The notes under the pieces are model-generated. The model made no database searches, was not told the DNA's origin, and saw nothing but the letters and a program-made list of their open reading frames with translations. Source: an uncultured Calditrichaceae bacterium (lineage in GTDB: Bacteria; Calditrichota; Calditrichia; RBG-13-44-9). From it: a stretch of DNA of 64,000 nucleotides. Made by a program: the position numbers and the translations under genes. The stretch is from the NCBI GenBank assembly GCA_964495805.1, contig CAZBWV010000051.1, positions 8,973-72,972 of the forward strand, written 5' to 3'. Below, piece after piece: positions 780 to 22,386 of this stretch (position 1 is the first letter of the stretch; every line of letters begins with the position of its first letter).

Positions 780-1796
780 ATGGCTGTCACCATTAAAGAT
801 GTTGCCAAACGCGCGAATGTCTCCGTCGCCACCGTCTCCCTGGTGATTCATAATAATAGCCGAATCTCCCGGGAAACCCGCAAACGCGTCCTGAAAGCAA
901 TCCGCGAATTGAATTACCATCCCAGCCGATTTGCTCGTGGGTTGGTCTCCCAAAAAAGTGGTAATATCGGATTTATCCTCACCGAAGATCACTTCTCCCG
1001 TTCCGAACCGTTTTATACTCAGGTATTTCTGGGTACCGAATTTCAGGCCCGGGAACATGAATATTATATCTTGCTCACCACAGTGCCGGAAAACTATTCC
1101 CACAACGATCCATTACCCCGATTTGTGCTGGAAAATAATGTGGAAGGGGTCATTCTGGCCGGAAAAGTTCCCCAGGCGCTCATCGAGGGATTGGAACAAT
1201 TCCATTTACCTCTGGTATTTGTGGACTATGTGCCCCCCAGGGGAAATTATCCCGCAGTGATGATTGACAATATTGCCGGGGGATTGATGGCCACCAATCA
1301 TCTGATCGGGTGCCGCCACCGGAAAATTGCCTTTGTAGGGGGCGACCTGGATCATCCCAGCATCACCGAGCGCTTTCAGGGGTACAAAATGGCACTGGAA
1401 AAAGCCGGTATCGATTACCATTCCCGGTACGTGGTGGTCGATGAACCGTTGCCAACCAGAGAGTATGGCTATGAGGCGGGGAAGAAACTGTTAGATAAAG
1501 CCGGGGATGTTACCGCGGTATTTGCCTGTAACGATGCCATGGCGATTGGCTTGTTGCAGTACTTCAAAGAGCGTGGACTGAATGTCCCCGGGGATATTTC
1601 TCTGATTGGATTTGATGATGTGGAAGCAGACCTGTCGTTGGATCCTCCGCTTACGACCATTCGCGTCTCCAAAGTGGACCTGGGAGTGGAAGCAATTAAT
1701 CTCATCGCCGAAATTTTGAAAAAAGGACGTTCTAATCCTCACAAAATTCTGGTTCCGGTAGAGCTGGTCATTCGCCAATCGACCTGTTCCATCTGA
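780..1796 (+). CDS. LacI family transcriptional regulator
   Basis: N-terminal HTH motif IKDVAKRANVSVATVSLVIHNN...ELNYHPSRFARGL is classic LacI/GalR. It is followed by a periplasmic-binding-protein-like sugar-binding domain. Length 338 aa. Confidence 0.9.
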   Translation: MAVTIKDVAKRANVSVATVSLVIHNNSRISRETRKRVLKAIRELNYHPSRFARGLVSQKSGNIGFILTEDHFSRSEPFYTQVFLGTEFQAREHEYYILLTTVPENYSHNDPLPRFVLENNVEGVILAGKVPQALIEGLEQFHLPLVFVDYVPPRGNYPAVMIDNIAGGLMATNHLIGCRHRKIAFVGGDLDHPSITERFQGYKMALEKAGIDYHSRYVVVDEPLPTREYGYEAGKKLLDKAGDVTAVFACNDAMAIGLLQYFKERGLNVPGDISLIGFDDVEADLSLDPPLTTIRVSKVDLGVEAINLIAEILKKGRSNPHKILVPVELVIRQSTCSI

Positions 1797-1858
1797 TATT
1801 TCTTACGATTTCGATAATGCCGGAAAAGAATTTGTCGTCCCATAAATAGCTGTACTAA

Positions 1859-1872
1859 GTAAAACGTTTAAC
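1859..1872. promoter_or_regulatory. second LacI-type operator (GTAAAACGTTTAAC, 13/14 match to the site at 757-770)
   Basis: Near-identical palindrome 19 nt upstream of the start of the downstream T9SS CBM-like gene. Only two copies of the AAACGTTTAAC core were seen in the window. Confidence 0.5.
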
Positions 1873-1890
1873 TAAATTATGGAGGTCTGT

Positions 1891-3734: not shown

Positions 3735-6440
3735 ATGCGCCGCCTACCAGTTTATTGGGATATGCCCGTTCAAATCATTGCCCTGCTTCTGATATTTCTG
3801 TCCCTGAGCTTTGCCGGTACCACCGGGAAAATTGTGGGTCGAATTGTGGATGCATCCACCGGGGAGCCGTTACCGGGAGTTAACGTACTGGTGGAAAACA
3901 CAACCTACGGTGCGGCAACGGATGTGGATGGCACTTTTTTAATTATCGGGATTCCGCCGGGCACATACACCCTGCGGGCCATGATGATTGGTTACAACGA
4001 CATGGTAGTCAAAAATGTGCGGGTGAGTGCGGACAAAACCACTCACGTGGATATGAAGTTACAGCAAACCACCCTGGAGTTAGGCGAGGCTATCGAGGTG
4101 ACAGCTGAGCGGCCACTGGTCAAAAAAGACCTGACCTCCACCGAATCCGCCGTAAGTAGCGATGTAATTGAAGCACTACCGGTGGAAACATTCTCTGATG
4201 TGGTCAATTTGCAGGCCGGGGTCATAGACGGACACTTCCGTGGCGGACGGCTGGGAGAGGTGGCTTATATGGTGGATGGCGTGCCGGTGAACGACGTGTA
4301 CTCCGGTTCCTACGCCATCGAGATGGAAAACAACGCCATCCAGGAACTGACTGTCATTAGCGGTACCTTCAATGCGGAGTACGGGCAGGCTATGTCCGGT
4401 GTGGTGAATATTGTGACCAAGGACGGTACGGACCATTTTACTGGGGATCTCAGTGTTTACGGAGGAGATTATCTCAGCACGCACGACGATATCTTCTGGA
4501 ATATCAAGGATTTCAATCCCATATTCAATTTGCAGGGGAACCTTAGCGGTCCGGTTCCCGGATTCGGGAAGAAGTTGAATTTTTTCCTCTCCGGACGCTA
4601 CTACGAAAATGCCGGTTACATTTACGGAAAGGAAGTTTTTCTCCCCACAGATAGTTCAGATTTCAGTCCGGATGACCCGGAAGACCGAATTGTGGAGAGT
4701 CATGGGGTACGCTATCCTTTCAGCGAGCAACTGGCACAGGATCTCATTCATCGGGCAAAGGCAGTGTCCATGAATCCCTCCCGGCGCCTGACCGGAGATT
4801 TGAAACTGACTTACCGTTTAACCGGAACGGATAAAATATCTGTGGACGGAATTTACCAGAATCGCCAGTGGCGGGAATACGATCACCGATTTCGCCTGAA
4901 TCCGGATGGCGATTACAAACGCTTTCAGCAGAGCGTGACGGCGCTGACACACTGGAACCATGTGTTCAGTGCACGCACTTTTATGGATGTGCGCTATTCT
5001 TACTTTTACACGGAGTACGACCAGTACGTGTACGAAGATCGGTTCGATCCCCGGTATGTTCCCGCTTCGCGATTGCAGTTAACCGGGGCCAATGCTTTTC
5101 TGGCCGGTGGTCAGCAGATGTGGCAATTCCATCGCAGTACCATGAGCCATCTTATTAAAGCAGAACTCACCAGTCAGGTGACCAACACCCATCAGCTCAA
5201 AGGAGGTGCACAGGTGCGCCGACACCGCCTGTGGCTTCACGAATATGAAGTGATTCCGGAAGACCCCGATCGCATGGCGCCCATCACTTCCTTCAATAAT
5301 AACATGTATCTGCACCATCCGCTGGAGTTTTCCGCCTACCTTCAGGACAAAATGGAATTTACCTACATGATTGTGAATGCTGGTGTTCGCTTCGATTATT
5401 TCGATCCCGATGGACAGGTGCCGGTGGATTTCTCCAACCCCTCCCAATCCCCCATGCGTAAAGCCGAAAGCAGCTGGCAGGTGAGTCCCAGATTGGGTAT
5501 TGCCTATCCCATTTCCGAAAAAGGGGTCATTCACGTTTCCTATGGTCATTTCTTCCAGGTGCCCAATTTCTTCTATCTGTACACCAACCCCGAGTTCGAT
5601 GTATTTCCGTTGCAGGGAACTCCCTCCCCACCGCCGCAATCGCTAATTAACACCATGGGAAATGCCGAGCTGAAACCGCAGAAAACGGTGATTTACGAAA
5701 TCGGGCTTCAGCAGCAGGTGGGAAGTATGTTTGGGCTGACCGTGACGGCTTATTACAAGGACATCCGTAACCTGCTGGGGACACAGGTGCTGGAAACCCA
5801 GCAGGGAATAAAATATGCGCGTTACATTAACCGGGATTATGGGTTTGTCCGCGGTATTACCCTGGAGCTGGAAAAGCGATATTCCAACGGAATTAGCGGA
5901 AGCGTGGACTACACCTACCAGATTGCCAAGGGAAACGCTTCGGATCCCAATACCGCCTTTTTAGATGCTCAGAGCGATCCGCCCAAACAAACGGAAAAGC
6001 AACTGGTTCCGCTGAACTGGGATCGTCGGCATCAGATTAATGCTACACTGACCCTGGGGACACCGGGGAAATTTGCCCTGACGCTGATTATGCGTTATGG
6101 TACCGGTCTGCCGTACACCCCCACCTTCCAGAATGTACAAACAGCCGTGGAAAACAGTGGGCGCAAACCGGATGAATTCTACATCGATTTGTATTTCAAT
6201 AAAGTGTTTAAATGGGGTGGGATGGAGTACAGTTTTTTCACCCGAATCTACAATTTGCTGGATCGGCTGAACGAGAGGAACGTGTTTACCGATACCGGTC
6301 GCGCGGGATATACCCTGGCTCCATTGTATGTGGGCGGGCTGCGTCCCCGCGGGTTAAACACCCTGGATCAGTACTTCATTCGACCCGATTTTTATTCCGA
6401 ACCGCGCCGGGTGCAAATTGGACTGGAACTTAGATTTTAA
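3735..6440 (+). CDS. SusC/RagA-like TonB-dependent receptor (CarboxypepD_reg N-terminal domain + plug + beta-barrel)
   Basis: Signal peptide. N-terminal GKIVGRIVDASTGEPLPGVNVLVENTTYGAATDVDGTFLI carboxypeptidase-regulatory-like domain. Plug motifs (VTAERPLVKKDLTSTESAVS). 901 aa, ending in ...GLELRF with a terminal Phe. GGGGAGG Shine-Dalgarno 7 nt upstream. Confidence 0.85.
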   Translation: MRRLPVYWDMPVQIIALLLIFLSLSFAGTTGKIVGRIVDASTGEPLPGVNVLVENTTYGAATDVDGTFLIIGIPPGTYTLRAMMIGYNDMVVKNVRVSADKTTHVDMKLQQTTLELGEAIEVTAERPLVKKDLTSTESAVSSDVIEALPVETFSDVVNLQAGVIDGHFRGGRLGEVAYMVDGVPVNDVYSGSYAIEMENNAIQELTVISGTFNAEYGQAMSGVVNIVTKDGTDHFTGDLSVYGGDYLSTHDDIFWNIKDFNPIFNLQGNLSGPVPGFGKKLNFFLSGRYYENAGYIYGKEVFLPTDSSDFSPDDPEDRIVESHGVRYPFSEQLAQDLIHRAKAVSMNPSRRLTGDLKLTYRLTGTDKISVDGIYQNRQWREYDHRFRLNPDGDYKRFQQSVTALTHWNHVFSARTFMDVRYSYFYTEYDQYVYEDRFDPRYVPASRLQLTGANAFLAGGQQMWQFHRSTMSHLIKAELTSQVTNTHQLKGGAQVRRHRLWLHEYEVIPEDPDRMAPITSFNNNMYLHHPLEFSAYLQDKMEFTYMIVNAGVRFDYFDPDGQVPVDFSNPSQSPMRKAESSWQVSPRLGIAYPISEKGVIHVSYGHFFQVPNFFYLYTNPEFDVFPLQGTPSPPPQSLINTMGNAELKPQKTVIYEIGLQQQVGSMFGLTVTAYYKDIRNLLGTQVLETQQGIKYARYINRDYGFVRGITLELEKRYSNGISGSVDYTYQIAKGNASDPNTAFLDAQSDPPKQTEKQLVPLNWDRRHQINATLTLGTPGKFALTLIMRYGTGLPYTPTFQNVQTAVENSGRKPDEFYIDLYFNKVFKWGGMEYSFFTRIYNLLDRLNERNVFTDTGRAGYTLAPLYVGGLRPRGLNTLDQYFIRPDFYSEPRRVQIGLELRF

Positions 6441-6454
6441 TCACGAGGATGACA

Positions 6455-9400
6455 ATGAAACGATTGTCATGGAAAACGTTGCTGGTTGCCTGTATGGTTT
6501 GGGTGTTCGCCCGGAGTGGGTGGGCACAACGAACCCCGGATCCCAACGTGGGAAACACCGAGTTGCGTCGCCAGGGAATTATGGATGGCAACCTGGTACG
6601 CACCATCTTTATTAACTGGGGCGAAATTGCTCACTGGCCGGATTCCCCTTCCGGGGAATGGCCCAAAGGGACCGGCCATCAGTATGTGGATGGTGTGGCG
6701 TTAATTGTTCAGGGACGCGCCATCGACAACAACGGAAACGTTATCCATCCCATGGAAACCCAGTACCGGGAATTTGTGGACAAAGGACCACACGACGAGC
6801 TGTGGGGCTGGGGTCCGCTTCCCGGCTATTTTAACGAAGAAGGAAACAGCCCTGCGATGAGCAACGATCCGCTTACCTGGCCGGACTACTGGCCGGATAA
6901 ACCGGACGGCTGGGTAAATCCCAACGAGGTGCGCAACGACCAGGATGATGATGGCAACGGATTGGTGGACGATCTGGTGTACTGGAATGGCTTCTTCGGA
7001 AAAGGTGTGCGCAATGCCGATCTGGAAACGTATTTTGTGTTTGATGACGATCCCGATGAGGAATGGGATTTTTATCCCGATCCGGCGCGTCCCGATCGTC
7101 GGGGAATGGGTCTGGAAGTGGCTGCGCGCTATTTTCAGTGGTCGCAGGTGCTGGCCGAAGACGTGATTTTTGCTGTGTACTTCATCACCAACGAGGGCAA
7201 GTACAATTACGATAGCACCTACTACTGTTTTTACATTGATTGGGGGATTGGGGGGACGGACGATTCCTCGGACGATACCGGTGATTACGACACCTATCTG
7301 GACATTGCCTGGGCATGGGATTACGATGGATTTGGTTCCCCGGGACACTGGCATCCGGTAGGAGTGGCGGGTTTCGCCTTTCTGGAGAGTCCCGGCATTG
7401 CCGATGACGGAGTGGATAACGACGATGATGGCATCGTGGACGAACGGCGCGATTCCGGCCCGGGAACCTGGCTGAGCGAATATCCCTACGGTGTGGATCC
7501 GGTGAAATACGAAGCCTATTTCGGGCATCCTCCCGCACCTCACTGGAGCGGTGATGAAGATGGCGACTGGAAACCCTACACCGATGTAAACCAGAACGGT
7601 CAGTGGGACGAGGGAGAACCGCTGAATGATGATGTGGGCGAAGACGGGCTGGGTCCCAACGATTTTGGTTATCCAGGACCCGATGTGGGCGAAGGAGACG
7701 GAATCCCCACAGCCGGTGAACCAGATTTCGATTACACCGACAAAGATGAGTCGGACCAGATTGGGTTAACCGGTTTCCGCATCTTTCCGGTTCATACTTA
7801 CGAATTGTGGAATGAGGAGCAGGATTGGGAAGTGTTTCGCTCCGCGCCACCACCCCATAGCAATCAAGTAACCGCCAATCTGGGGATGTTCTTCTCCTCC
7901 GGTCCTTTTCCCCTGAAAGCAGGGCAGACCGAAAATTATTCCATGGCGTTGCTGTTCGGAGAAGATAAAGATGATCTGGTGCTGACCAAGAAAACCATTC
8001 AACAAATTTATAATGCCGATTATCGCTTTGCCAAACCACCGGAAAAACCGCGACTCAAGGCGGTGATTCCGGGAGATAATCGGGTAATTCTGGTATGGGA
8101 TGACCGGGCCGAACGCTCCTGGGATCCCTTCCTGCAGGAATACGATTTTGAAGGGTACCGGATTTACCGCAGTACCGAACCGGAATTTCTGGAAACCCGA
8201 CTTATCACCGATGCCTACGGGCGGTTAACCTTCCGCAAACCCATCGCTCAGTTCGATTTGAAAAATGAATGGAGCGGTCTGCATCCCATCGATGTATCGG
8301 GTGTTCATTTCAATCTGGGAAACAATACCGGCTTGTCCCATTACTATGTGGATACCGATGTGAAAAACGGACAAACGTACTACTACGCAGTGGTATCTTA
8401 CGATCACGGTCTGGTGGATACCAGTGCAACCGGTACGCTGGTGGGATTGGCTCCCGCGGAGTGTACCAGTAAAATTCAGAAGGATATTTCCGGGAATGTG
8501 CAGGTAGATATTAACACAGCAGTGGTCACCCCCTCGGCGCCGGTTGCCGGCTATGTACCGCCCGAATTAGTGGGCGATTTTGTCCGGGAAACCGTGGGCA
8601 CCGGCGAGGTGAATCTGGAGTTTCTCATTCCCGATTCCGTACGGGATGGACATACCTATTCCATTGAGTTCGGTGATACTTCTTTCTTCCACAACGAAGG
8701 GAATTCGTACTATGTGATATATGATATTACCGGCGGAGAGAAAATTCCCAGAACGGATACCTTGTGGATTGATGGCGACAGCCAGTCTCCACTGGTGGAT
8801 GGCTTTGTGCTAACCATCCATAATGATGCCTGCGATCTGGATTACGACAACACCGGCTGGCTGGTGGGTTCTTCCACCTACAAATGGCGAGTGAATCAGG
8901 ACAGCCGCTTCTCCAATACCAATCCCGCATTGAATTTCAATATCAACTATCCTGCAGATTTCGAGGTAACCTTTTCCGATCAGATAATCGATACTGCGGA
9001 GAATGTACTGTTCCCGCCGGATGTGCCGACTAAATTTTCCATATACAACGTTACGGAGGATTCTGCCGCTCATTTTATGTTCCTGGAATTTGATAATCCC
9101 GATTCCACGCTCAGTCCGTACTATCCGGATGACGAGCAGATGGAAAGTGCCATTATCTGGGTACCCGATCCCAGACCGAGTAATCCGTTACACATCAAAA
9201 CTTCCTGGCGGCTCTATTTTGAGGCGGATACCACGGTGGATCACATGGTGCCGCCACAACCGGGCGATATTTTCCGCATCGCCACCAAAAAGCCGTTCCG
9301 CACCGGCGACCGTATCGAGTTTACTGTACGGGGTCAGCGCTACGATGTGGAAAAAGCGAAAAGCGATATGGATCAGATTGCTGTCGTTCCCAATCCCTAT

Positions 9401-9682
9401 GTGGTTACGGCTGCCTGGGAACCCAATTCTCCCTATCGTTTCGGACGGGGTGAGCGGCGGATTTACTTTATCCATCTGCCCAAAAAGTGTACCATTCGCA
9501 TCTACACCCTGCGGGGGTATCTGGTGGATACCATCGAACACAACAGTTCGCTGGAGAACGGACAGGAAGCCTGGGATATGCTGAATAAGGACGGACAGGA
9601 AATTGCCTATGGAATTTACATCTACCATGTGGATGCTCCGGGGGTAGGTGAGAAAATCGGGAAGTTTGCCATTATTAAATAA
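6455..9682 (+). CDS. large acidic cell-surface protein with TSP3-like Ca-binding Asp-rich repeats and a variant, extended T9SS-like C-terminal domain (cassette copy 1)
   Basis: Signal peptide (MKRLSWKTLLVACMVWVFARSGWAQ). Repeats DQDDDGNGLVDD, DNDDDGIVDE and GDEDGDWKPYTDVNQNGQWDEGE. FN3-like YDFEGYRIYRST. C-terminus VVPNPYVVTAAWEP...CTIRIYTLRGYLVDTIEH...GIYIYHVDAPGVGEKIGKFAIIK. GAGG lies 6 nt upstream of the ATG at 6455; the alternative ATG at 6449 has no spacing. Confidence 0.75.
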   Translation: MKRLSWKTLLVACMVWVFARSGWAQRTPDPNVGNTELRRQGIMDGNLVRTIFINWGEIAHWPDSPSGEWPKGTGHQYVDGVALIVQGRAIDNNGNVIHPMETQYREFVDKGPHDELWGWGPLPGYFNEEGNSPAMSNDPLTWPDYWPDKPDGWVNPNEVRNDQDDDGNGLVDDLVYWNGFFGKGVRNADLETYFVFDDDPDEEWDFYPDPARPDRRGMGLEVAARYFQWSQVLAEDVIFAVYFITNEGKYNYDSTYYCFYIDWGIGGTDDSSDDTGDYDTYLDIAWAWDYDGFGSPGHWHPVGVAGFAFLESPGIADDGVDNDDDGIVDERRDSGPGTWLSEYPYGVDPVKYEAYFGHPPAPHWSGDEDGDWKPYTDVNQNGQWDEGEPLNDDVGEDGLGPNDFGYPGPDVGEGDGIPTAGEPDFDYTDKDESDQIGLTGFRIFPVHTYELWNEEQDWEVFRSAPPPHSNQVTANLGMFFSSGPFPLKAGQTENYSMALLFGEDKDDLVLTKKTIQQIYNADYRFAKPPEKPRLKAVIPGDNRVILVWDDRAERSWDPFLQEYDFEGYRIYRSTEPEFLETRLITDAYGRLTFRKPIAQFDLKNEWSGLHPIDVSGVHFNLGNNTGLSHYYVDTDVKNGQTYYYAVVSYDHGLVDTSATGTLVGLAPAECTSKIQKDISGNVQVDINTAVVTPSAPVAGYVPPELVGDFVRETVGTGEVNLEFLIPDSVRDGHTYSIEFGDTSFFHNEGNSYYVIYDITGGEKIPRTDTLWIDGDSQSPLVDGFVLTIHNDACDLDYDNTGWLVGSSTYKWRVNQDSRFSNTNPALNFNINYPADFEVTFSDQIIDTAENVLFPPDVPTKFSIYNVTEDSAAHFMFLEFDNPDSTLSPYYPDDEQMESAIIWVPDPRPSNPLHIKTSWRLYFEADTTVDHMVPPQPGDIFRIATKKPFRTGDRIEFTVRGQRYDVEKAKSDMDQIAVVPNPYVVTAAWEPNSPYRFGRGERRIYFIHLPKKCTIRIYTLRGYLVDTIEHNSSLENGQEAWDMLNKDGQEIAYGIYIYHVDAPGVGEKIGKFAIIK

Positions 9683-10776: not shown

Positions 10777-10873
10777 CAGTAGCTGTTAGCATTTGATATC
10801 GCCTCCTGCGGAGCACGTCTGGTGGAGGGGATTGATTCGACCACGAACGAAAGGAGAACAAAAAACGATTGAC

Positions 10874-12193
10874 ATGGAGGGCAACATCAGGCAAAGGTTC
10901 TGGATAACCGGGATAGGACCCCGCATTTTTCTGGGGGTCATTTTTTTTATTCTGATAGGTTGTCATCGCGAAAAACAGTCTGCGGAGCAGGCCATTGTGT
11001 ATTGGTCCTCCAACAACAATTACGAGATAGAGTTTGCCCGCGCGGTGGTGGCGGATTGGAACCGCTTGCATCCCGACGTACCGGTGAAAACTCAGCCGGT
11101 TCCCGAGGGACAATCCAGCGAAGAGGTGATCCTGGCTGCGGTGGTGGGGAAAACCACTCCGGATATCTATTCCAACATGTGGCAGGGCGATGTGGCATTT
11201 TATGCTTCCTCCGGTGTGCTGGTTGCATTGGACACTATTCCCGGTTTTCTGGAATTTCTCCGTCAACGCTGCGACAGCGCCACCCTCCAGGAAGTAACTG
11301 CGGAAAACGGGCATATTTATCAGATTCCCTGGAAAATGAATCCCATCATGATGATTTATAATCGAAAGGCGTTGCGGGAAATCGGTTTTCCGCGGCCGCC
11401 GCAAACCTACTCCCGTTATCTGGAGGCCGCGCGCCGGTTCAGCCGGGACGCTGACGGAGACGGGTATGTGGACCACTGGATTGGTTATACCAATGTTTCG
11501 GTCACCTGGTGGCAACGGTTGTTCGATTTTTACCCGCTCTACCTGGCAGCGTCCGGTGGGGCACCGCTGGTTCGGGGGAATCGAGTGATGTTCGAAAATG
11601 CCCATGCCGTGGAAGTGTTCCGTTTTCTGAAAACCCTGTTCGAGAAAAACTACTTCCCCCGGGAACAGCTTTCTGCCCGGCAGGATGCGTTTCTCTCCGG
11701 CATCATTGCTACACGAATTACCGGTCCGTGGGATATCATGCATGTGGAACGCTTTAAACCGAAAGGCTTCGAATATGCCTTTACTTCCGTACCCCGACCC
11801 GATGAGTGCGAAGGGCCGGTGTACACGTACTGCGATCCGAAAAATATCGTCATTTTTAACACCTGCACGCGACCGCAACAGGCGGTGGAATTTGTGAAGT
11901 TTATGTTGAGTGAGAAGAATGACTTCCGTTTGCTGGAAATGACACGTCAGCTACCCAGACGCAGGGATTTGTTCTCCAGCGATCGGTTTATGGCCTATTT
12001 TCTGGCTCACCCTCGCATGCTGCCCTTTGCCCGGCAGGCGCGGTATATCCGGGGAACAGACAATTCCCCGGTGCTGAAGGAAATTTTTGATGCCATTTCT
12101 CAGGAATTTGAAGCGTGTGTGGTGTACGGCACCAAATCCCCGGAACAGGCGATTCACGATGCCGCCACCGCAGCGCAGCTATTGTTAAAATAA
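10874..12193 (+). CDS. ABC transporter substrate-binding lipoprotein, family 1 (sugar/oligosaccharide)
   Basis: Lipobox (FFILIGCH) after the start at 10874; the upstream in-frame ORF from 10793 is unlikely to be translated. Size and composition fit extracellular solute-binding family 1. It is followed by two MalF/MalG-type permeases. Confidence 0.7.
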   Translation: MEGNIRQRFWITGIGPRIFLGVIFFILIGCHREKQSAEQAIVYWSSNNNYEIEFARAVVADWNRLHPDVPVKTQPVPEGQSSEEVILAAVVGKTTPDIYSNMWQGDVAFYASSGVLVALDTIPGFLEFLRQRCDSATLQEVTAENGHIYQIPWKMNPIMMIYNRKALREIGFPRPPQTYSRYLEAARRFSRDADGDGYVDHWIGYTNVSVTWWQRLFDFYPLYLAASGGAPLVRGNRVMFENAHAVEVFRFLKTLFEKNYFPREQLSARQDAFLSGIIATRITGPWDIMHVERFKPKGFEYAFTSVPRPDECEGPVYTYCDPKNIVIFNTCTRPQQAVEFVKFMLSEKNDFRLLEMTRQLPRRRDLFSSDRFMAYFLAHPRMLPFARQARYIRGTDNSPVLKEIFDAISQEFEACVVYGTKSPEQAIHDAATAAQLLLK

Positions 12194-12205
12194 CGGACGA
12201 GCCGC

Positions 12206-13069
12206 ATGAAACGGAAGTTGAAGAAACAACTGATTCCTTATGTGATGGTGTCGCCTTATGTACTGCACTTTTTGTTGTTTGTGTTGTTTCCGGTAGTATT
12301 TTCGTTTGTACTCATTTTTCACCGCTGGAATATCATTTCGCCTATGGAATTTGTGGGATTGGGCAATTTCGACCGCCTGTTTCATGACCGCTTGTTTTTC
12401 AAATCTCTGGGGAATACGCTAATTTTTTTGATTATCCACATTCCTTTACAAATTGCTGTGGCGTTGTTCTTTGCCGAATTGCTTAATCAGCGAATTCGGT
12501 TGCGGGGATTTTTCCGTGCGGCGTACTTCCTGCCGGTTGTGGTTTCCGGTGTGGTGGTCACTGTGTTATGGCAGCAATTGTACGGATTCGATACCGGTTT
12601 GCTGAATCGGTTACTGGTCAAACTGGGGCTGGGCCGCGTACCCTGGCTGGTAAGTCCCAAACTGGCTATGCCCTCCATTGCACTGATGGCAACCTGGAAA
12701 AATGTGGGTCTGTACATTGTGTTGTTTCTGGTCGGGCTTCAGAGTGTACCCAGCCATTATTACGAAGCCGCCGAATTGGAGGGCGCCACTCACTGGCAGA
12801 AGTTCTGGTATATTACCCTGCCCATGATTAATCCCACCATTTTTATGGTGGTGGTGCTTTCCACCATTGGCGGATTTTCTCTGTTTATTGAACCGTATGT
12901 GATGACCGGAGGCGGACCGTTAAATAGCACCCTCTCGGCGGTGTTGTACATTTACAAGCAGGGCTTCTTTTTCTACCACATGGGTTATGCCGCTACCCTG
13001 GGATTCTTCTTTGCCGCATTAATTTTGATGGTGGTGTTCTTACAGAAGCGGTTTGTGGAAAGGGAGTAG
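12206..13069 (+). CDS. ABC transporter permease (MalF/UgpA-like)
   Basis: Six-TM permease with the EAA-like loop region (YEAAELEGATHWQKFWYITLP). Confidence 0.8.
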   Translation: MKRKLKKQLIPYVMVSPYVLHFLLFVLFPVVFSFVLIFHRWNIISPMEFVGLGNFDRLFHDRLFFKSLGNTLIFLIIHIPLQIAVALFFAELLNQRIRLRGFFRAAYFLPVVVSGVVVTVLWQQLYGFDTGLLNRLLVKLGLGRVPWLVSPKLAMPSIALMATWKNVGLYIVLFLVGLQSVPSHYYEAAELEGATHWQKFWYITLPMINPTIFMVVVLSTIGGFSLFIEPYVMTGGGPLNSTLSAVLYIYKQGFFFYHMGYAATLGFFFAALILMVVFLQKRFVERE

Positions 13070-13370
13070 GGAAAGAAGGGGAAATAAGGGGGATAAGGAA
13101 ATAGATGAAATGTAGGATGGGGAAGTAGAATGAGTACTGAGGGTTTTATCTCATGAACAGGTGTGCAATTGGTGGTGCGGTTAAAAGTTTGTCAGACCTG
13201 ATTTCAGGAGGGTGAGGGGGAGCATAACACATTGATTTTTCGCTGTTTTCGCGAATGAATATATACGGCAGATTTTTCCTGGAATTTTGGTATTCGCTTC
13301 ATGATTGCTCGGTGTTTCTTTAATAGCAGTATAAGCGGTATTTTCGGGTGAGTGAAAAAAAGGGATTCAG

Positions 13371-14189
13371 GTGAAAGTGATTAAAAAAATCGGGTTGTAC
13401 GGAATTTTATTTGTGGGAGCAGTGGCATTCACCTATCCGTTTTTATGGATGCTGTTTGCTTCCCTGGCACCTGAATCGGAAATCGGGCGACTGACTTTGT
13501 TTCCTTCCGCCCTGACCCTGCACAATTATCAGCAGGTTGTGGAAAAAATCCCTATTTTTCGTTCTTTACTGAACAGCCTGATTGTTTCCTTCAGCGTCAC
13601 GGTCGGTGTTCTGGTGTTCAGCTCCATGGTGGGTTACGCTCTTTCTCGCCTGCGCTTCAAAGGTCGCAACCTGATTTTCTACATTATCATTTTTACCATG
13701 ACTCTGCCGTTTCAAATTACACTGATTCCCCAGTATATTTTGATGGTGAAATTTGGCTGGGTGGACAGTTACCTGGCATTAATTGTTCCCTACCTGCTCA
13801 GCGCTTTTGCCATCATCATGTTCCGACAATATTTTATGACCATTCCGCAGGATTTAATTGATGCGGCACGCATTGATGGATGCTCGGAATTTCAGATCCT
13901 CTTTCGCATCCTCTGGCCCAACTCCGTGCCCGCTCTGGTTACGGTGGGCATCATTACCTTCATGACTTCCTGGAACGAAGTGCTCTGGCCCATCATTGTA
14001 ATTCGTAACGAAAAGTTAATGACCATGCCTCAGCTGGTAACCCTGTTTGTAGTGGGAGGGCGTTCCGAATCCCAGCTGGGAGTGAAACTGGCCTCTGCCA
14101 CCATGCTGGCATTGCCCATTATTGTGGCGTACATCTTCTTCCAGCGGTATTTCATCCAGAGTATGGCCAGCACAGGAATGAAGGAGTAA
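13371..14189 (+). CDS. ABC transporter permease (MalG/UgpE-like)
   Basis: Six-TM permease with conserved IDAARIDGCSEFQILFRILWP (EAA motif). Confidence 0.8.
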   Translation: MKVIKKIGLYGILFVGAVAFTYPFLWMLFASLAPESEIGRLTLFPSALTLHNYQQVVEKIPIFRSLLNSLIVSFSVTVGVLVFSSMVGYALSRLRFKGRNLIFYIIIFTMTLPFQITLIPQYILMVKFGWVDSYLALIVPYLLSAFAIIMFRQYFMTIPQDLIDAARIDGCSEFQILFRILWPNSVPALVTVGIITFMTSWNEVLWPIIVIRNEKLMTMPQLVTLFVVGGRSESQLGVKLASATMLALPIIVAYIFFQRYFIQSMASTGMKE

Positions 14190-15706: not shown

Positions 15707-16636
15707 ATGGCAGAAGTGAAGCTGAAACGCGTGAACGGAGTTATTCTGGGACCGATTGCCGAACATCCCTGGGAGTCCCGTGCGGCGTTTAATCCGGGAG
15801 CTGTTCTGGTTAACCAGGAGGTGCATTTGCTGTACCGCGCGGTGGAAGGGGACAACTTCTCGACCATCGGATATGCTCGTCTTACACCGGACGGGCAGCT
15901 CCTTTACCGACATCCGGAACCGGTGATTCGGCGCGAGCAGGAACAGGAAAAACAGGGGGCCGAAGACCCGCGCATCGTGCCTTTTCAGGAAAAATACCTG
16001 GTGTTTTACACCGGTTACAATGGGCAAACCGTGCGGGTGATGATGGCCGAAACAGAAGACTTTTTACGTTTCCACAAACATGGTGTGGTGGGGCCGGATC
16101 ATAACGATAAGGACGCCATGCTCTTTCCGGAAACCTTCGGGAACCGGGTGGCATTTCTGCACCGTATTGAACCCAGCATTCAGCTGGCCTGGTTCGACGA
16201 CTTCCAGCATTTTCTCCATCCCGAAAAGGAATACTGGCCCACCCATCTGCAACAACTGGAGCAGCACGTGGTGATGCATCCCGAATACAGCTGGGAAGCG
16301 GAAAAGATTGGCGCGGGTCCTACCCCCATTCACACCGAGGCGGGATGGCTGCTGATTTACCATGGTGTGGATCGCCAGCTTACCTACCGGGCCGGGGCAG
16401 CGCTGTTGGACGAAAAAGACCCCACCCGGGTTATTGCCCGACTTCCGTATCCCATACTGGAACCGGAACGCGATTACGAGAAAATTGGCGATGTGAATAT
16501 GGTGGTGTTTCCGGAAGGAGCAGTGGTGGCGGAGAATGAATTGTACGTGTTTTACGGTGGGGCTGATAAAGTGGTGGGGCTGGCTGTTTGCCGCCTGTCC
16601 GATTTAATCGATGAACTCTGGCGACACCGAGTGTGA
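15707..16636 (+). CDS. GH130 family glycoside phosphorylase/hydrolase (beta-mannoside-acting, DUF377)
   Basis: N-terminal ...WESRAAFNPGAVL... and five-bladed-propeller-like repeats (LVFYTGYNGQ, LLIYHGV). Length 309 aa. Adjacent to a GH2 beta-mannosidase. Confidence 0.6.
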   Translation: MAEVKLKRVNGVILGPIAEHPWESRAAFNPGAVLVNQEVHLLYRAVEGDNFSTIGYARLTPDGQLLYRHPEPVIRREQEQEKQGAEDPRIVPFQEKYLVFYTGYNGQTVRVMMAETEDFLRFHKHGVVGPDHNDKDAMLFPETFGNRVAFLHRIEPSIQLAWFDDFQHFLHPEKEYWPTHLQQLEQHVVMHPEYSWEAEKIGAGPTPIHTEAGWLLIYHGVDRQLTYRAGAALLDEKDPTRVIARLPYPILEPERDYEKIGDVNMVVFPEGAVVAENELYVFYGGADKVVGLAVCRLSDLIDELWRHRV

Positions 16637-19600
16637 TGAAATCTTTGTTTCAACACAAAAAATGGCGTTTAGCGGCAGGCAGGGTGTGGTGGCAGATTTT
16701 ACTGCTGGTTGGCACTTCCGCGTTTAGCCAGCAGATCACCATTCCCCGCGTGAATCTGATGCCCGATTTCCCCCAGCCGTATCACATGCGTAACTGGAAA
16801 AAGGTGGCGCTGGGGTACGATTCGCTGGTGTTTAATTTCCACGCCAGCGGACAGTACCTGCCGCTTATTCGCTGGAACACTTCGCCGGTAAATTACCCGA
16901 ATCATCCCAGCTTTGGTTTGCATACCGTGGTGGGAACTCTGTACCCGGAAAGCGCCGAAGCGATTAATGCACTGCCTGCGGTTATAGGAGCCATGCTTTG
17001 CGGAGTGGACAAACGGCATCAGTTCGGGCAGGATTTTGTGCTGATGTGTGAGGAATGGTTCAATCGCCGACCGGCTGAAAATGTGTATCTGAACCATCCC
17101 TATACCAGCAGTGGTAGCGACTGGTGGTATGATACCATGCCGAACCTGTTCTTCTACCAGTTGTTCGATCTGGCCAGCGATCTTAGCATTGGCGAATTTG
17201 CCCTTCAGTTTGAACTGGTAGCCGACCGGTGGCTGGAAGCGCTTGGTGCCATGGGGGGAAGTGCCACCCCCTGGAACGTGCCCGGGATGAACTACCACGG
17301 ATGGCACCTTTCCACCATGACTCCCAACACGAACGGTGTTCCGGAGCCGGAAGCAGCGGGTGCCATAGCATGGCTCCTGTACATGGCGTGGAACAAACTT
17401 CATCATTTAAAATATCGCACGGGGGTGGAATGGGCGCTGGAGTTTCTGGAAGCGTGCCCCTCTAACCCCTCTTACGAGCTTCAGCTTCCCTACGGTGCCT
17501 ATGTTGCGGCCCGGATGAATGCCGAAGTGGGGACTACTTACGACATTCCCCGTCTGGTGAATTGGTGCTTCGACGTCGGCCCGTTGCGCAATTGGGGAGC
17601 TATTGTGGGAACCTGGGGTGGGTACGATTGTTCCGGTCTCATCGGAGAAATCAGCGGCAACGACTACGCTTTTTTCATGAACACGGTGGAACAGATTGGA
17701 GCTCTGGTTCCCCTGGTACGCTACGACGAACGGTTTGCCACTGCCATCGGAAAATGGGTATTGAATGCCACCAATGCCCTGCGCCTGTTTTATCCCAACT
17801 TTTTGCCGGACGACCACCAGGACAATGAACAATGGGCACATCAGTACGATCCACATTCCTGCATCGCTTACGAAGCGCTGCGGGAGGAGTATCAGGGCTA
17901 TAGTCCCTATGCTACCGGCGATGCCATGAGCGGTGGCTGGGGATTAACCAACTTGACTCTGTACGGCTCCTCCCACGTAGGCATTTTGGGTGCCATTGTG
18001 GATACTACCAACATTCCCGGTATTTTAAAACTGGATGTATTGAAGACAGATTATTTCCATCGTCCGGCCTATCCCACCTATCTGCTGTACAATCCTTATT
18101 CCGTGGATACTCTGGTGGCGCTACCCCTGCCGATCGGTAATCATGATATTTACGAGGTGGTGAGCAATCAATTTGTGCAGCAAGGGGTCAGCGGAACTGC
18201 CCTGTTAAATCTACCTGCCCATCAGGCCTGGCTGGTTGTGCTGACGCCGGCAGGTGGAGCTCTTGCCTACCGGCAGGAATGGATGCTGGTGAACGGGGTG
18301 GTAGTGGATTTCCGCTCCGGACAGCCTGTTAGCAATTATCCGCCCCGCATCAAAGGGCTGGCAGCTGACCCGCCCACAGTGGGAATTGCAGATACTACCA
18401 CACTGTTCTGCACGGCGGTAGATCGCGATGGCGATTCACTCACTTTCCAGTGGATCTGTTCTTCCGGAAATGTGTTTGGTAGCGGAAGTCAGGTTCAGTG
18501 GGTGGCTCCCGGTGTGGTTGGTCAGGGATCGGTGAGGGTGGTGGTAAGCGACGGGCTGGCAACGGATACCGCCCGGCTGGAAATTCCCGTTACCCAGCCG
18601 GTGAATCATCCTCCGGTCATTGAATCGCTCACCGCCCGTCCGCGGAAAATCGATCTGGGGGGAACCGTACGGTTGCAGTGTACGGCATACGATCCCGATG
18701 GCGATTCGTTGAGTTACGACTGGACGGCCAGTGCAGGGATTTTGCAGGATAGTTTGAACACCGCAACCTGGACGGCTCCCATGCAACCGGGGGATGACAC
18801 CATTTACTGTCGGGTGGTCGATTCCCGCGGGGCGGAAGCCCGGGACAGCATCGTGGTGCTGGTGCGCGACTTCTCCCAGTTTGTTCCCGGGAAGTTAATT
18901 GCTTACTATCCCATGAATGGGAACGCCAACGATGCCAGCGGACACGGTTACCACGGGGTGGTGCATGGTGCCGTACTTACGACCGACCGTTTCGGAAATC
19001 CTAATGCCGCTTACCGGTTCGACGGTGTGGACGATTACATCTCGGTAGCCAATCACGACAGTTTGAACTTCCGCCGGGCCATCTCTCTGAACTTCTGGAT
19101 GAAAATCGATCAGTTCTCCGGTCACGAAGCATTTCTTCTCTCCCACGGAAGCTGGCAGCATCGCTGGAAGGTCTCGCTGATTCCTTCCCGACATCTGCGC
19201 TGGACTGTCAATACCGATCAGGGAATTGTGGATCTGGACAGCGAAAATCCCCTGCAGGGAGGAATCTGGTACAACGTTACCTGCTATTACGATGGTTCCG
19301 GTATGGAGCTTTACCTGAATGGCGAGCTGGATAACTTTACTTCCTGCTCCGGTCTGATCCGGCAAACCAGCTACGATTTGACCATGGGTCAGATGCTTCC
19401 GGGAAACGCCAGCTACAACTTTGCCGGAGTGCTGGATGAGGTGCGAGTTTACAATTACGGATTGTCCGTGCCGGAAATCACCACTCTGTACCAGATGCCC
19501 AATGGAGTTACTCCGCCGGAGGGGGTTCCTCTTGCCCGGCAATTCAAAGTGTATCCGAATTATCCCAATCCGTTTAATTCCGTTACGGTAATCCAATACA

Positions 19601-19800: not shown

Positions 19801-19802
19801 TC

Positions 19803-22244
19803 GTGAAAGAAAGTTTTCACAAAACGGAATTCCTCCGGGAAGGATGGCGGCTTGAACCGCTCACTTTACGGGATGCCCCGGCGGATTTCTCCCTCCCGGA
19901 GGAAGGATTACCCGTACAGGTACCCGGCAACGTGCACGCCGATTTACTAAACGCTGGTTTGATTCCCGACCCGTTTTACGGGGACAATGAAAAGCGCGTC
20001 CGCTGGGTTCAGCAAAGCGATTGGTGTTATCAGCGGGAAGTAAATCTGCCTCAATCGTTTGATGCGAAAAAGCCAATTTATCTGGTATTTCAGGGAGTGG
20101 ACACGGTTGCGAATATCTTCTGGAACGGGGAGGAGTTGCTGCACACGGAGAATATGTTTCGCTCCTATCGGGTGCGTTTACCACAGGTGCATTCTACGGG
20201 GAATCGCCTGCGGGTGGAGCTCTTTTCACCGGTTCGGTTTGCCCGGGAGCAGGAAAGGGTACATGGCAGATTGCCCGCTGCGGAATTTGCTGCCCGGGTT
20301 TATCTTCGTAAGGCTCAGTATTCATTTGGCTGGGATTGGGGACCATCCCTGCCCACCATGGGGTTATGGCGGCCGGTGGTTTTATGGCAGCCCGAACGTG
20401 CCTGGGTGGAAACGATACGCTTCCATACTGCCCGGCTTGAGTCGGACCGTGCACGGGTGATGGTGGAAGTGGAGGTACAGGGTGAATGGCGAGAAACGGA
20501 TTCCGTGCAGATTTCTCTGGTGGGGAACAAACAGGTGGTGGAACGCCAGGTGACGCTGAAAAAATCGGGCAATGTGCAGGTGGAAATGGATGTGCTGCAT
20601 CCCTGCCTGTGGTGGCCCAACGGAGAGGGTGAACCGTTCCTGTACTCCCTGCAGGTGCAACTGATTTCCCACAATTTAAACATTCTCGATCGCCAGACCC
20701 GACGGGTGGGCATTCGCACCATCCATCTGCAAACCCGGGAGAATGGCCAACCGGTATTCCGTCTGATGGTCAACGGACGATCCATCTTCGCCCGCGGTGC
20801 CAACTGGATTCCCGCACACTCCTTTTTAACCAGAGTCACTCCGGAAACTTACCGGGAACTGCTTTCCCGCGCCAGAGAGGCTCACATGAACCTCATCCGG
20901 GTGTGGGGCGGGGGCGTGTATGAGAGTGACCTGTTTTATCGGCTTTGTGATGAACTGGGACTGTTGGTATGGCAGGACTTGATGTTTGCCTGCGGTGTTT
21001 ATCCCACTCATCCCGAATTTCTTCAGAATGTCCGGGAAGAAGTGCGCCAGAATGTGGATCGGTTGCAGCATCACCCCTCCCTGGCACTGTGGTGCGGAAA
21101 TAACGAAAATCACTGGATATGGTATCGTGATCAGGGCAAAGCGGTAAAGGAAATGCCCGATTACATCATTTACCATCGGATTCTACCGGAAGTTTTGCGG
21201 GATAAGGACCCACTTCGTCCCTACTGGCCTTCATCTCCGTTCGGAGAGGAAGACGATCCCAATCATCCCGGTTCCGGCAATCGCCACCAGTGGGACATCT
21301 GGAGTTTTTGGCAGGATTATACCGGGGTTCAGCGGGATGAGAGTTTGTTTGTTACCGAATTCGGGTTTCAGGCGCCAGCCAATCATTCCACACTGGAACG
21401 GGTTATTCCCCCGGTACACCGTTTTCCTCAGAGCCGACTGTTTGAATGGCATAACAAACAACAATCCGGTAATGCCCGTCTGTTTCGCTTCCTGGCCGAG
21501 CATCTGCCGGTTGCCACGGAATGGGGAGCATTTATCTATCTCACCCAATTGAATCAGGCGTTTGCGCTGAAGACCTGCCTGGAGCACTGGCGATGCCGCT
21601 GGCCGGAAACTGCCGGAGCAGTGATCTGGCAGCTTAATGATTGCTGGCCGGTGAGCAGCTGGTCGCTGATTGATTCGGAATTAAAGCCAAAACTGTCTTA
21701 TTATCAGGTAAAACAGACGTTTGCTCCGTATCTTGTGGTGGCTGTGGAGGCAAATGGAGAGCGACACTGGCAGTTTCGCAATTTTGCTCGCCAGGATTTT
21801 CGAGGAAGGGTAACGTACCATCTGCTGGAGCTTTCCTCCGGTTTGCTGCTGGATGAGGTAGAAGAACCAATCCGTATTCCTGCGAACGGAAGGCTGAGCG
21901 GTCATCCGATTTCAGAAGGAGATGATCGGATTTCGGTGGTAAGTTTGTGGCGCGATGATGGGAAGTTACTCTCCCGCAACTGGTGGACCGCACTCCCCTA
22001 CAAATACCTGCGTTCTCGCGATCCGTTGTTGAATTTGATGGTGGAAAAAGATCAGCTTTACATTTCCGCTCAACGATTGGCATTATTTGTCATGCTGGAG
22101 CACCCGGCACTAACGTTTGTGGAGAACGGATTCATTCTGTTACCCGGAGAACGGCGGCGGGTGGCCAGCGTCGAGAAAAATCGGGTGATGCCGGAGTTAG
22201 AAGAAGTACGCATCTGGTGCCTGAACTATTTTTTACAGCGTTAA
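19803..22244 (+). CDS. GH2 family beta-mannosidase
   Basis: GTG start. Conserved beta-mannosidase blocks: VPGNVHADLLNAGLIPDPFYGDNE, WGGGVYESDLFYRLCDELGLLVWQDLMFACGVYP and LWCGNNENHW. Length 813 aa. Confidence 0.8.
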   Translation: MKESFHKTEFLREGWRLEPLTLRDAPADFSLPEEGLPVQVPGNVHADLLNAGLIPDPFYGDNEKRVRWVQQSDWCYQREVNLPQSFDAKKPIYLVFQGVDTVANIFWNGEELLHTENMFRSYRVRLPQVHSTGNRLRVELFSPVRFAREQERVHGRLPAAEFAARVYLRKAQYSFGWDWGPSLPTMGLWRPVVLWQPERAWVETIRFHTARLESDRARVMVEVEVQGEWRETDSVQISLVGNKQVVERQVTLKKSGNVQVEMDVLHPCLWWPNGEGEPFLYSLQVQLISHNLNILDRQTRRVGIRTIHLQTRENGQPVFRLMVNGRSIFARGANWIPAHSFLTRVTPETYRELLSRAREAHMNLIRVWGGGVYESDLFYRLCDELGLLVWQDLMFACGVYPTHPEFLQNVREEVRQNVDRLQHHPSLALWCGNNENHWIWYRDQGKAVKEMPDYIIYHRILPEVLRDKDPLRPYWPSSPFGEEDDPNHPGSGNRHQWDIWSFWQDYTGVQRDESLFVTEFGFQAPANHSTLERVIPPVHRFPQSRLFEWHNKQQSGNARLFRFLAEHLPVATEWGAFIYLTQLNQAFALKTCLEHWRCRWPETAGAVIWQLNDCWPVSSWSLIDSELKPKLSYYQVKQTFAPYLVVAVEANGERHWQFRNFARQDFRGRVTYHLLELSSGLLLDEVEEPIRIPANGRLSGHPISEGDDRISVVSLWRDDGKLLSRNWWTALPYKYLRSRDPLLNLMVEKDQLYISAQRLALFVMLEHPALTFVENGFILLPGERRRVASVEKNRVMPELEEVRIWCLNYFLQR

Positions 22245-22310: not shown

Positions 22311-22386
<76 letters not shown>

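Follow-up and report, generated by a model that had tools for sequence, protein, structure and literature searches.

The uptake of glycans and peptides through SusC/SusD systems accounts for much of the ecological success of the Bacteroidia. How their abundant SusD-less relatives in sediments, hot springs and the ocean feed through TonB-dependent transporters has, to our knowledge, not yet been worked out. The present analysis concerns a window of 64,000 nucleotides (nt) from an uncultured Calditrichaceae bacterium (contig CAZBWV010000051.1; all positions are those of the window). It contains, at 780-22244, a series of 12 open reading frames (ORFs), all on the plus strand, which begins with a LacI repressor and ends with a beta-mannosidase of glycoside hydrolase (GH) family 2, with the same coordinates as in a first-pass annotation of this DNA. 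Within this locus lies a group of three adjacent genes, termed here the triad, which encodes a TonB-dependent transporter, an all-beta protein of 1,077 amino acids (aa) referred to as BIG, and an outer-membrane barrel of the PorV/PorQ family.

Several described systems bear on this arrangement. In Porphyromonas, PorZ and PorU sit on PorQ and PorV by means of C-terminal domains (CTDs) that they keep, and a CTD may be shielded from cleavage by a cognate PorV-like barrel (PMC10202324). Substrates of the Flavobacterium type IX secretion system (T9SS) attach to their carriers' extracellular loops, and type B substrates stay anchored on these carriers (PMC10994853). In the BAM complex of Bacteroides, the FadL-like barrel BamG, next to BamA, uses its loops to hold the surface protein BamH (PMC12578637). 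With regard to the sugar enzymes, the beta-1,2-mannoside phosphorylases of Thermoanaerobacter are without signal peptides, are cytoplasmic and are encoded with an ATP-binding cassette (ABC) importer (PMC4264767). The genome paper of Caldithrix abyssi mentions only BtuB-type and thiamine receptors, and the triad was not found described in the open-access papers and preprints searched for PorV or TonB-dependent receptors together with Calditrichota, KSB1, Marinimicrobia, Ignavibacteria or Melioribacter. The triad appears to be undescribed in that literature, and an earlier description elsewhere is possible.

Our reading, to which a probability of roughly 0.55 is given, is that the locus is one LacI-repressed operon that captures, imports and breaks down beta-mannosides, with the triad of BIG, barrel and transporter at the outer membrane. 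Because of the PorZ/PorU, Flavobacterium carrier and BamG-BamH precedents, it is proposed by analogy that BIG is tethered by its CTD to its own barrel and works with the transporter as a SusD-like surface partner, a proposal held at close to, or slightly below, even odds. A wider and more tentative suggestion is that the triad may represent a kind of TonB-dependent complex for nutrient uptake that has so far gone unrecognised, and may be the chief one among the non-Bacteroidia relatives of Bacteroidota (Calditrichota, KSB1, Marinimicrobia, Ignavibacteria and Balneolales), in which a T9SS-delivered protein of ~1,000 aa, CTD-tethered to a PorV-like barrel, would take the role of SusD.

The genes of the triad are tightly spaced, with 8 nt between transporter and BIG and 68 nt between BIG and barrel. 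For comparison, 40 related loci were taken from one scan of a genome collection with BIG, and every ORF in them was compared by BLASTP with the window proteins. Of the 32 fetched loci with enough flank, 31 have the transporter gene directly upstream of BIG; on the downstream side, a PorV-family gene occurs within 2 kb in 29 of 30. In one Calditrichaceae locus (L005, 8704-12822), BIG and the PorV-family barrel were verified to occupy a single ORF. This reflects either a fusion that exists in nature or a fault in the assembly; if the fusion is real, it would speak for the two proteins being physical partners. The full gene order of the window locus, comprising LacI, T9SS protein, receptor, BIG, PorV-like barrel, binding protein, two permeases, YPO2471-like lipoprotein, GH130 and GH2, recurs in at least eight Calditrichaceae genomes (L002, L005, L010, L011, L013, L015, L024 and L026), so that it is not a chance order. 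The first-pass annotation had seen in the locus a mixture of Bacteroidia-type parts with others; the architecture is rather a standard one, conserved in Calditrichota and neighbouring phyla. A horizontally acquired chimera was considered and rejected, since composition is uniform and related genomes have the same order.

Beyond Calditrichota, triad loci occur in KSB1, Neomarinimicrobiota, Ignavibacteriales/Melioribacter and the cultured Gracilimonas mengyeensis DSM 21985 (Balneolales), and their neighbours differ from locus to locus. In an Ignavibacteriales genome the triad adjoins M16, M1 and M28 peptidases, and in L009 a GH32 gene. The Gracilimonas locus (L031; NZ_FXTP01000009.1, 152087-175959), whose triad lies at ~159-167 kb and in which BIG has 1,294 aa, is preceded by a SurA-like peptidyl-prolyl isomerase and followed by a T9SS protein with a DUF5689 domain, LacI and a T9SS-exported amylase with GH13 and CBM48 domains. 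In most related loci, and in L041 and L042, a T9SS-CTD protein is encoded directly upstream of the receptor. Peptidyl-prolyl isomerase (Rotamase) domain proteins, encoded at 5376-7082 of L031 and 18703-20139 of L015, stand beside the triad there, and may point to a chaperone for the outer-membrane parts.

The window itself holds a second triad, on the minus strand, in which a T9SS-exported BNR protein (39998-41719) is followed by a transporter (37109-39904), a BIG paralogue of 940 aa (34231-37053) and a barrel (33195-34214). Between the first and second triads, identity is 31% over the C-terminal 600 residues of BIG and 45% for the barrel; the receptors are 49% identical in their N-terminal portion and 26% identical in the portion that forms the barrel. 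Beyond the second triad, as far as ~25027, lie genes for RpiR, two M14 carboxypeptidases, a Na+/H+ antiporter-family protein and an amidohydrolase, and the module looks like a peptide or amino-acid uptake locus. On its other side, at 42441-51782, are a DctM-like transporter, an AstE/AspA-like deacylase and a gamma-glutamyltranspeptidase. The neighbourhood is conserved, since the same DctM/deacylase/gamma-glutamyltranspeptidase set, at 19134-22868 of L042, lies near a triad on an unrelated 1.17-Mb contig. Alongside this set, the window encodes an Asp/Glu racemase and a T9SS protein whose AAT domain resembles that of penicillin acylase.

The transporter of the first triad had been annotated as SusC-like, a name that it does not bear out. 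Against the SusC/RagA model TIGR04056 it scores 60.3 bits, where the cut-off is 368.25, and the match covers residues 32-158 only; its only SusC match in the PDB, 8aa4, is likewise limited to residues 20-157. Ahead of the plug lies a CarbopepD_reg_2 domain (73.4 bits, residues 33-118). What is shared with SusC is, by sequence, this N-terminal carboxypeptidase-regulatory-like domain and not membership of the family. The SusC-like receptor cassette of the first-pass annotation does exist as a cassette, and is actually the triad, whose T9SS-CTD protein of 1,077 aa and PorV/PorQ-family barrel had gone unrecognised. The pair of BIG and barrel is the most likely answer to the lack of SusD.

BIG belongs to no Pfam family, and a sequence search of the PDB gave no relative. 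Outside its C-terminus there is no Pfam or NCBIfam domain match, and so no PorU-type peptidase domain was detected. The AlphaFold model (mean predicted local distance difference test (pLDDT) 87.2; predicted template-modelling score (pTM) 0.80) is all-beta and consists, in order, of a large N-terminal sandwich region, Asp-rich loops with DxDxDG-like motifs, an FN3-like domain (~526-665), further sandwiches and a C-terminal beta-sandwich (~970-1077) with a disordered insert at 985-1001. Its long loops are acidic and resemble calcium-binding loops. The C-terminal domain aligns with type A T9SS CTDs in hhalign (98.5% probability, E 3.3e-15, 76 columns), a match that single-sequence models miss, and NCBIfam gives faint matches of the C-terminus to those of PorZ and PorU. 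Whole-chain Foldseek comparison returns PorZ (5m11, probability 0.98), strings of FN3 domains, and the N-terminal parts of GH94 enzymes and dextran dextrinase. Conservation is highest in the FN3-like domain (2.50 bits) and the CTD (2.45 bits), and lowest in residues 316-440 and 801-965. So well conserved a CTD would be unusual if it served as a signal removed by cleavage.

The closest relatives of BIG, at up to 85% identity, are encoded by metagenome-assembled genomes of Calditrichia, Calditrichota and KSB1. With a profile of 126 sequences, the family extends to at least 2,864 clusters (at 50% identity) with E <=1e-30 and to 8,625 with E <=1e-10; among the matches listed, named relatives are nearly always a 'hypothetical protein'. 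More than 50% identity is kept among 120 database relatives, and SusD proteins are far more variable than this. The idea that BIG is a substrate-specific enzyme was rejected, as no catalytic domain is matched and the protein is present in glycan and peptide loci alike.

The barrel matches the PorV/PorQ family model NF033709 over its full length (245.7 bits; cut-off 90), and falls below the cut-offs of all the equivalog models, namely PorV (NF033710, 89.4 against 250), PorQ (NF033711, 92.9 against 220) and PorV2 (NF052325, 120.5 against 325). Weak Toluene_X/FadL and UPF0164 matches are found in Pfam, and there is a faint match to BamG (E 6e-5, 22 bits against a cut-off of 250). On these scores it is a member of the PorV/PorQ family distinct from canonical PorV and PorQ, and is proposed, by analogy with the T9SS pairs, to be the cognate carrier or anchor of BIG.

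The sugar acted on by the locus is best approached through its two classified enzymes. GH130 matches PF04041 at 194.3 bits (cut-off 26), and its best PDB relatives are the 1,2-beta-oligomannan phosphorylase 9fj8 of Thermoanaerobacter (Teth514_1788; 197 bits, residues 4-300) and the beta-1,2-mannobiose phosphorylase 7fip (185 bits). Both alignments are full-length, the one with 9fj8 at roughly 45% identity as read off the printed alignment. The next relatives, at 109-123 bits, are a mannoside synthase solved with a 1,2-beta-mannoside ligand and Lin0857, and beta-1,4-acting enzymes reach 39-105 bits over part of the length only. Among NCBIfam models the best is that of beta-1,2-mannobiose phosphorylase (NF052550), at 253.6 bits, below the equivalog cut-off of 450; the score is consistent with a place in the same clade, without demonstrating that the enzymes are equivalent. 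For the GH130 step, a beta-1,2 linkage is the better guess. The GH2 protein matches the beta-mannosidase 5n6u at 574 bits (residues 38-771), and 2je8 and other beta-mannosidase chains at ~405 bits. Its Pfam domains include Glyco_hydro_2_N2 and Ig_mannosidase, and by this full-length similarity it is a beta-mannosidase. Since both GH130 and GH2 are without a signal peptide at the N-terminus, they are predicted to be cytoplasmic.

Endo-mannanases of GH26, GH5, GH113 and GH134 were not recognised in the locus with Pfam, nor were a mannobiose 2-epimerase or a mannose-6-phosphate isomerase. Several orthologous loci add a GFO/IDH/MocA oxidoreductase and a second GH130 of ~420 aa. The locus had been put forward as one for beta-mannan utilisation. 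The candidate glycosidases do fall in families active on beta-mannosides, GH130 and GH2, and not in non-mannan families, so that a beta-mannoside is supported; a beta-mannan is not, because no recognised endo-beta-mannanase is present and GH130 is nearest to beta-1,2 enzymes.

Import across the inner membrane would fall to a CUT1 importer, of which the locus encodes a family-1 binding protein and two permeases with BPD_transp_1 domains. The Pfam scan took in all the locus genes and, in the region 22-57 kb, all ORFs of 200 aa or more, the two large ORFs at 57173-61811 lying outside it, and among the genes and ORFs scanned it gave no match to an ABC ATPase or to SusD, in agreement with the first-pass annotation. 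For CUT1 importers, a shared MsmK-type ATPase encoded elsewhere in the genome is usual. The solute-binding protein has the lipobox LIGC, its true start being probably the ATG at 10874, and the 441-aa lipoprotein has the lipobox LLISC. Ordinary signal peptides are present on BIG, the barrel, the receptor and the two T9SS proteins. From these predicted locations a route can be drawn that leads from the surface through the TonB-dependent transporter to the periplasm, and by way of the ABC importer to phosphorolysis and hydrolysis in the cytoplasm.

Two further proteins are the best candidates for the polymer-cutting and oligosaccharide-trimming steps, namely the 441-aa lipoprotein and the surface-displayed LamG/PKD protein of 1,055 aa, both of which are predicted to contain an (alpha/alpha)6 barrel. 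The lipoprotein is a clear sequence homologue of YPO2471 of Yersinia pestis (PDB 7tem; phmmer E 7e-84). Because 7tem groups structurally with (alpha/alpha)6 glycosidases and epimerases, the lipoprotein probably shares this fold, and would be a candidate periplasmic glycosidase. Literature searches of open-access papers and preprints found no function for YPO2471/7tem, and the conserved place of the lipoprotein in a mannoside operon offers a hint of one for the YPO2471 family.

The LamG/PKD protein is composed of an N-terminal domain (~aa 33-560), PKD/Big_9 repeats, LamG and a type A CTD (TIGR04183, 41.9 bits; cut-off 23). Residues 1-570 have no Pfam match, and no PDB match with a profile of seven sequences. 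The N-terminal domain (16729-18400) is very well conserved, with many acidic and aromatic residues invariant, and has more than 1,200 relatives across the Fibrobacteres-Chlorobi-Bacteroidetes group, of which the named ones bear only LamG- or PKD-type labels. Counted from residue 33 as the start of the domain, the invariant acidic positions include E77, D131, E250, D365, D374, E382, D398 and D441. AlphaFold models it with pLDDT 94.8 and pTM 0.94 as an (alpha/alpha)6 barrel with a beta-sandwich. Foldseek (probability 1.0; template-modelling (TM) score 0.35-0.5, at the level of fold only) matches it to GH127 and GH146 beta-L-arabinofuranosidases, an Aspergillus rhamnosidase, cellobiose and glucose 2-epimerases, GH88, GH47, GH94, GH116 and YPO2471 (7tem). 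By sequence the domain does not belong to the classified (alpha/alpha)6 families such as GH127, GH146 and GH88, and it has no sequence similarity to the 441-aa lipoprotein. On its predicted fold it is a candidate for a new glycoside hydrolase family.

The other T9SS protein of the locus, of 492 aa, has a type A C-terminal sorting domain (TIGR04183, 36 bits; cut-off 23), so that its earlier description as a T9SS protein stands, and the accompanying label 'CBM-like' is weak (CBM_4_9, E 0.004, 17.9 bits, below the cut-off of 25.9). A sequence search gave no PDB relative, and the protein is probably a substrate-binding protein. Its counterparts in most orthologous loci (L004, L005, L010, L011 and L026) have ~850 aa, and the window copy appears to have fewer repeats resembling a carbohydrate-binding module (CBM).

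The best promoter-like site of the region, TTGACA-17-TATATT at 718-746, is followed directly by the perfect palindrome TTAAACGTTTAA (758-769, plus strand), upstream of lacI. A second operator-like palindrome with one mismatch, TAAAACGTTTAA (1860-1871, plus strand), lies 8 nt ahead of the first structural gene. Of 16 related loci, 12 carry the 12-mer TTAAACGTTTAA, with no or one mismatch and mostly in two copies, directly upstream of lacI, and in L013 the position equivalent to 1860-1871 is also occupied. The count of matches in the window (four, with 2.5 expected) is by itself not significant, and a scan for consensus promoters and terminators gave sites no more numerous than in shuffled sequence. 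The case for operators is made by position and cross-genome conservation and not by the number of matches, and by these the palindromes are probably LacI operators, placed at the repressor's own promoter and before the first structural gene. At the other end, the tRNA and terminator named in the first-pass annotation are present. The terminator has an 8-bp GC-rich stem with a CTGT loop, GGGCTTGC-CTGT-GCAAGCCC, then the T-run TTTTGATTTTT, and with A and T runs on its flanks it is possibly bidirectional. Rfam over the whole window finds only the tRNA, so that the 378-nt gap ahead of the receptor gene contains neither a riboswitch nor a leader RNA. The spacer between the permease genes is partly purine-rich, is not repeated in the window, and has neither an Rfam match nor a relative in any fetched locus; in orthologous loci the permease genes abut or overlap.

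Taken together, the proposed sequence of events would run as follows. LacI would repress the operon by binding to the TTAAACGTTTAA palindromes. At the cell surface, substrate would be captured by the two proteins that carry T9SS export signals, the CBM-like binder and the 1,055-aa protein, and the (alpha/alpha)6 domain of the latter may cut the polymer. The fragments would then pass through the non-SusC TonB-dependent transporter encoded with BIG and the dedicated barrel. BIG, exported by the T9SS and retaining its conserved CTD, would stay bound through this domain to the extracellular loops of its own barrel, and, lying beside or over the transporter, may act as the surface partner, the role played by SusD in Bacteroidia. 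Substrate specificity would come from the upstream variable T9SS protein and from the variable regions of BIG. In the periplasm, the YPO2471-like lipoprotein may trim the oligosaccharides, which the solute-binding lipoprotein and two permeases encoded here, driven by an ATPase encoded elsewhere, would carry across the inner membrane. In the cytoplasm, the GH130 phosphorylase would release mannose-1-phosphate, probably from a beta-1,2 linkage, and the GH2 beta-mannosidase would finish the breakdown.

Several points weigh against this account. The window holds no T9SS core gene, and the presence of the system is deduced from six CTD-bearing proteins; the complex formed by the triad and its localisation are predictions from sequence and models. 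The CTD of BIG could be an export signal only, and the protein, being conserved across loci for different substrates, may be a generic structural part and not a substrate binder. Its whole-chain Foldseek matches are weak (TM below 0.2), so that the fold says little on function. With regard to the enzymes, the matches of the (alpha/alpha)6 domain are at fold level and include epimerases besides hydrolases, and neither the NF052550 score below its cut-off nor the estimated 45% identity fixes the linkage specificity of GH130.

Alternatively, the locus might serve the use of beta-1,4-mannan (gluco- or galactomannan) through a SusC-like receptor, in the manner of a Bacteroides polysaccharide utilisation locus (PUL) but with an ABC importer as the inner-membrane transporter. 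A GH2 beta-mannosidase is present, the Pfam name of the GH130 family is 'beta-1,4-mannooligosaccharide phosphorylase', the receptor has the same N-terminal CarboxypepD_reg domain as SusC, and the second GH130 of orthologous loci, at ~420 aa, has a size typical of beta-1,4-mannosyl-glucose phosphorylases. This is nevertheless unlikely, given that beta-1,4 enzymes score about half or less of what the beta-1,2 phosphorylases do against the GH130 of the window, that endo-beta-mannanase, mannobiose 2-epimerase and mannose-6-phosphate isomerase are not recognised in the locus, that the SusC/RagA model fails and that SusD is absent. A different doubt concerns the triad, in which BIG and barrel might be co-transcribed with the receptor and yet independent of it, BIG being an adhesin or surface coat with its own T9SS carrier, or the barrel a FadL-type channel. 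The weak Toluene_X/FadL and UPF0164 matches of the barrel fit such a division, as does the string of beta-sandwich and FN3-like domains in BIG, which in Foldseek resembles adhesins, S-layer proteins and phage tail-tip proteins, and BIG is fairly conserved whatever the substrate. Its probability is nonetheless judged to be low, as the three genes are adjacent in nearly every locus over several phyla, with the short gaps seen here, and as a genome has several copies, each in a different catabolic operon, which favours a job tied to uptake over general adhesion.

It is very improbable that BIG and barrel are housekeeping parts of the T9SS attachment complex, equivalent to PorU/PorZ with PorV/PorQ, which stand here by chance. 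Such a view could draw on the weak matches of the BIG C-terminus to PorZ and PorU, the Foldseek match to PorZ and the membership of the barrel in the PorV/PorQ family, but the equivalog models of PorZ, PorU, PorV and PorQ are all far below their cut-offs and no PorU-type peptidase domain is detected in BIG. Moreover, the 64 kb of the window hold the pair twice, the family has thousands of diverse members, and the pair always adjoins a TonB-dependent transporter and catabolic genes. A beta-mannoside operon with the triad at the outer membrane is the reading that we prefer.

The features of the window are collected in Table 1, the locus genes having been annotated with Pfam and NCBIfam models. 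The gene set of the first-pass annotation (LacI, T9SS protein, receptor, solute-binding protein, two permeases, lipoprotein, GH130, LamG/PKD protein and GH2) is present in full and in place. Two observations concern the margins of the window. A truncated ORF (3-509) lies directly upstream of lacI, and at 55910-61811 a gene for an HlyD-type membrane-fusion protein precedes two ORFs, of 1,053 aa and 472 aa, the whole being probably a resistance-nodulation-division (RND) efflux system.

Table 1. Positions of the locus genes and other features in the 64,000-nt window, with the basis of each assignment
Feature	Position	Strand	Basis
LacI-family repressor	780..1796	+	Pfam LacI 76.9 bits, Peripla_BP_3 129 bits
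T9SS-exported surface protein, 492 aa	1879..3357	+	signal peptide, two weakly CBM4_9-like repeats, TIGR04183
TonB-dependent transporter, 901 aa (CarboxypepD_reg N-terminal domain, plug, barrel)	3735..6440	+	Pfam
BIG, 1,077 aa, all-beta multidomain protein with signal peptide	6449..9682	+	no Pfam family; AlphaFold; hhalign
PorV/PorQ-family outer-membrane barrel, 341 aa	9751..10776	+	NF033709
Family-1 solute-binding lipoprotein	10793..12193	+	SBP_bac_1, SBP_bac_8
ABC permease 1	12206..13069	+	BPD_transp_1
Non-coding spacer between permease genes, 301 nt	13070..13370	.	in no orthologous locus
ABC permease 2	13371..14189	+	BPD_transp_1
YPO2471-homologous lipoprotein, 441 aa	14286..15611	+	phmmer to 7tem; lipobox
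GH130 phosphorylase	15707..16636	+	PF04041
LamG/PKD/T9SS protein, 1,055 aa	16633..19800	+	Pfam; AlphaFold; Foldseek; TIGR04183
GH2 beta-mannosidase	19803..22244	+	similarity to 5n6u; Pfam
tRNA-Phe (GAA)	22311..22386	+	Rfam
Intrinsic terminator	22393..22426	+	read directly from sequence
Second triad module	33195..41719	-	Pfam; paralogue comparisons

The evidence supports the description of the locus as a LacI-regulated operon with a TonB-dependent receptor, a CUT1-type importer without its ATPase, T9SS accessory proteins, and GH130 and GH2 enzymes. The wider interest lies in the triad, which sits in operons for mannosides, starch, fructan and peptides, and which, conserved in thousands of sequence clusters, would give a concrete and testable answer to the question of SusD-less feeding. 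Its presence in the cultured Gracilimonas mengyeensis DSM 21985 makes the idea directly testable. If the proposal is true, T9SS carrier barrels have been recruited as permanent parts of an import machine, and their role extended from export to import. Two (alpha/alpha)6 glycosidase families that are not yet classified would also come from this locus, one of them with a solved and as yet unexplained structure (7tem).

Among operons for sugar utilisation the locus is of an ordinary and known kind, and it fits the pattern of CUT loci. In Xanthomonas and other Proteobacteria, CUT loci reportedly combine a TonB-dependent receptor, an inner-membrane transporter, carbohydrate-active enzymes and a regulator, a definition attributed to Blanvillain et al. 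in 2007. All four gene classes of this definition are present here, including a LacI-type regulator and a non-SusC TonB-dependent receptor; CUT loci are not known to have T9SS-exported proteins or a pair of BIG and PorV-like barrel beside the receptor. With SusC/SusD PULs the locus shares a regulated operon, a TonB-dependent importer with a CarboxypepD_reg domain, surface glycan binders or cutters and downstream glycosidases, as well as the occurrence of many paralogous loci per genome, each with its own substrate. It differs from them in that there is no SusD lipoprotein, the surface proteins are T9SS-CTD proteins and not lipoproteins, and the partner genes of the transporter encode a CTD protein of ~1,000 aa and a PorV/PorQ-family barrel. 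In addition, a CUT1 ABC system would serve for import at the inner membrane, and the enzymes of the last steps are predicted to be cytoplasmic.

The nearest likeness on the side of the enzymes is the cluster Teth514_1785-1796 of Thermoanaerobacter sp. X-514, which has an ABC importer and cytoplasmic GH130 phosphorylases of the same clade (PMC4264767). Thermoanaerobacter is Gram-positive and has no outer-membrane stage, and its cluster carries GDP-mannose genes and a GH5, whereas the present locus has a GH2 beta-mannosidase and two putative (alpha/alpha)6 proteins. For BIG and its barrel, the closest parallels are PorZ-PorQ, PorU-PorV and the type B CTD proteins with PorP/SprF-like barrels, in which a CTD surface protein is likewise encoded beside a dedicated PorV-like barrel and the CTD may be retained to hold the protein on it (PMC10202324, PMC10994853). 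Those pairs serve secretion, attachment and gliding, whereas this one sits in nutrient-uptake operons beside a TonB-dependent transporter. In BamG-BamH, too, a FadL/PorV-like barrel holds a large surface protein beside another barrel, an arrangement that is proposed here from genes and models; the BAM complex functions in the assembly of outer-membrane proteins, and BamH, unlike BIG, is a lipoprotein.

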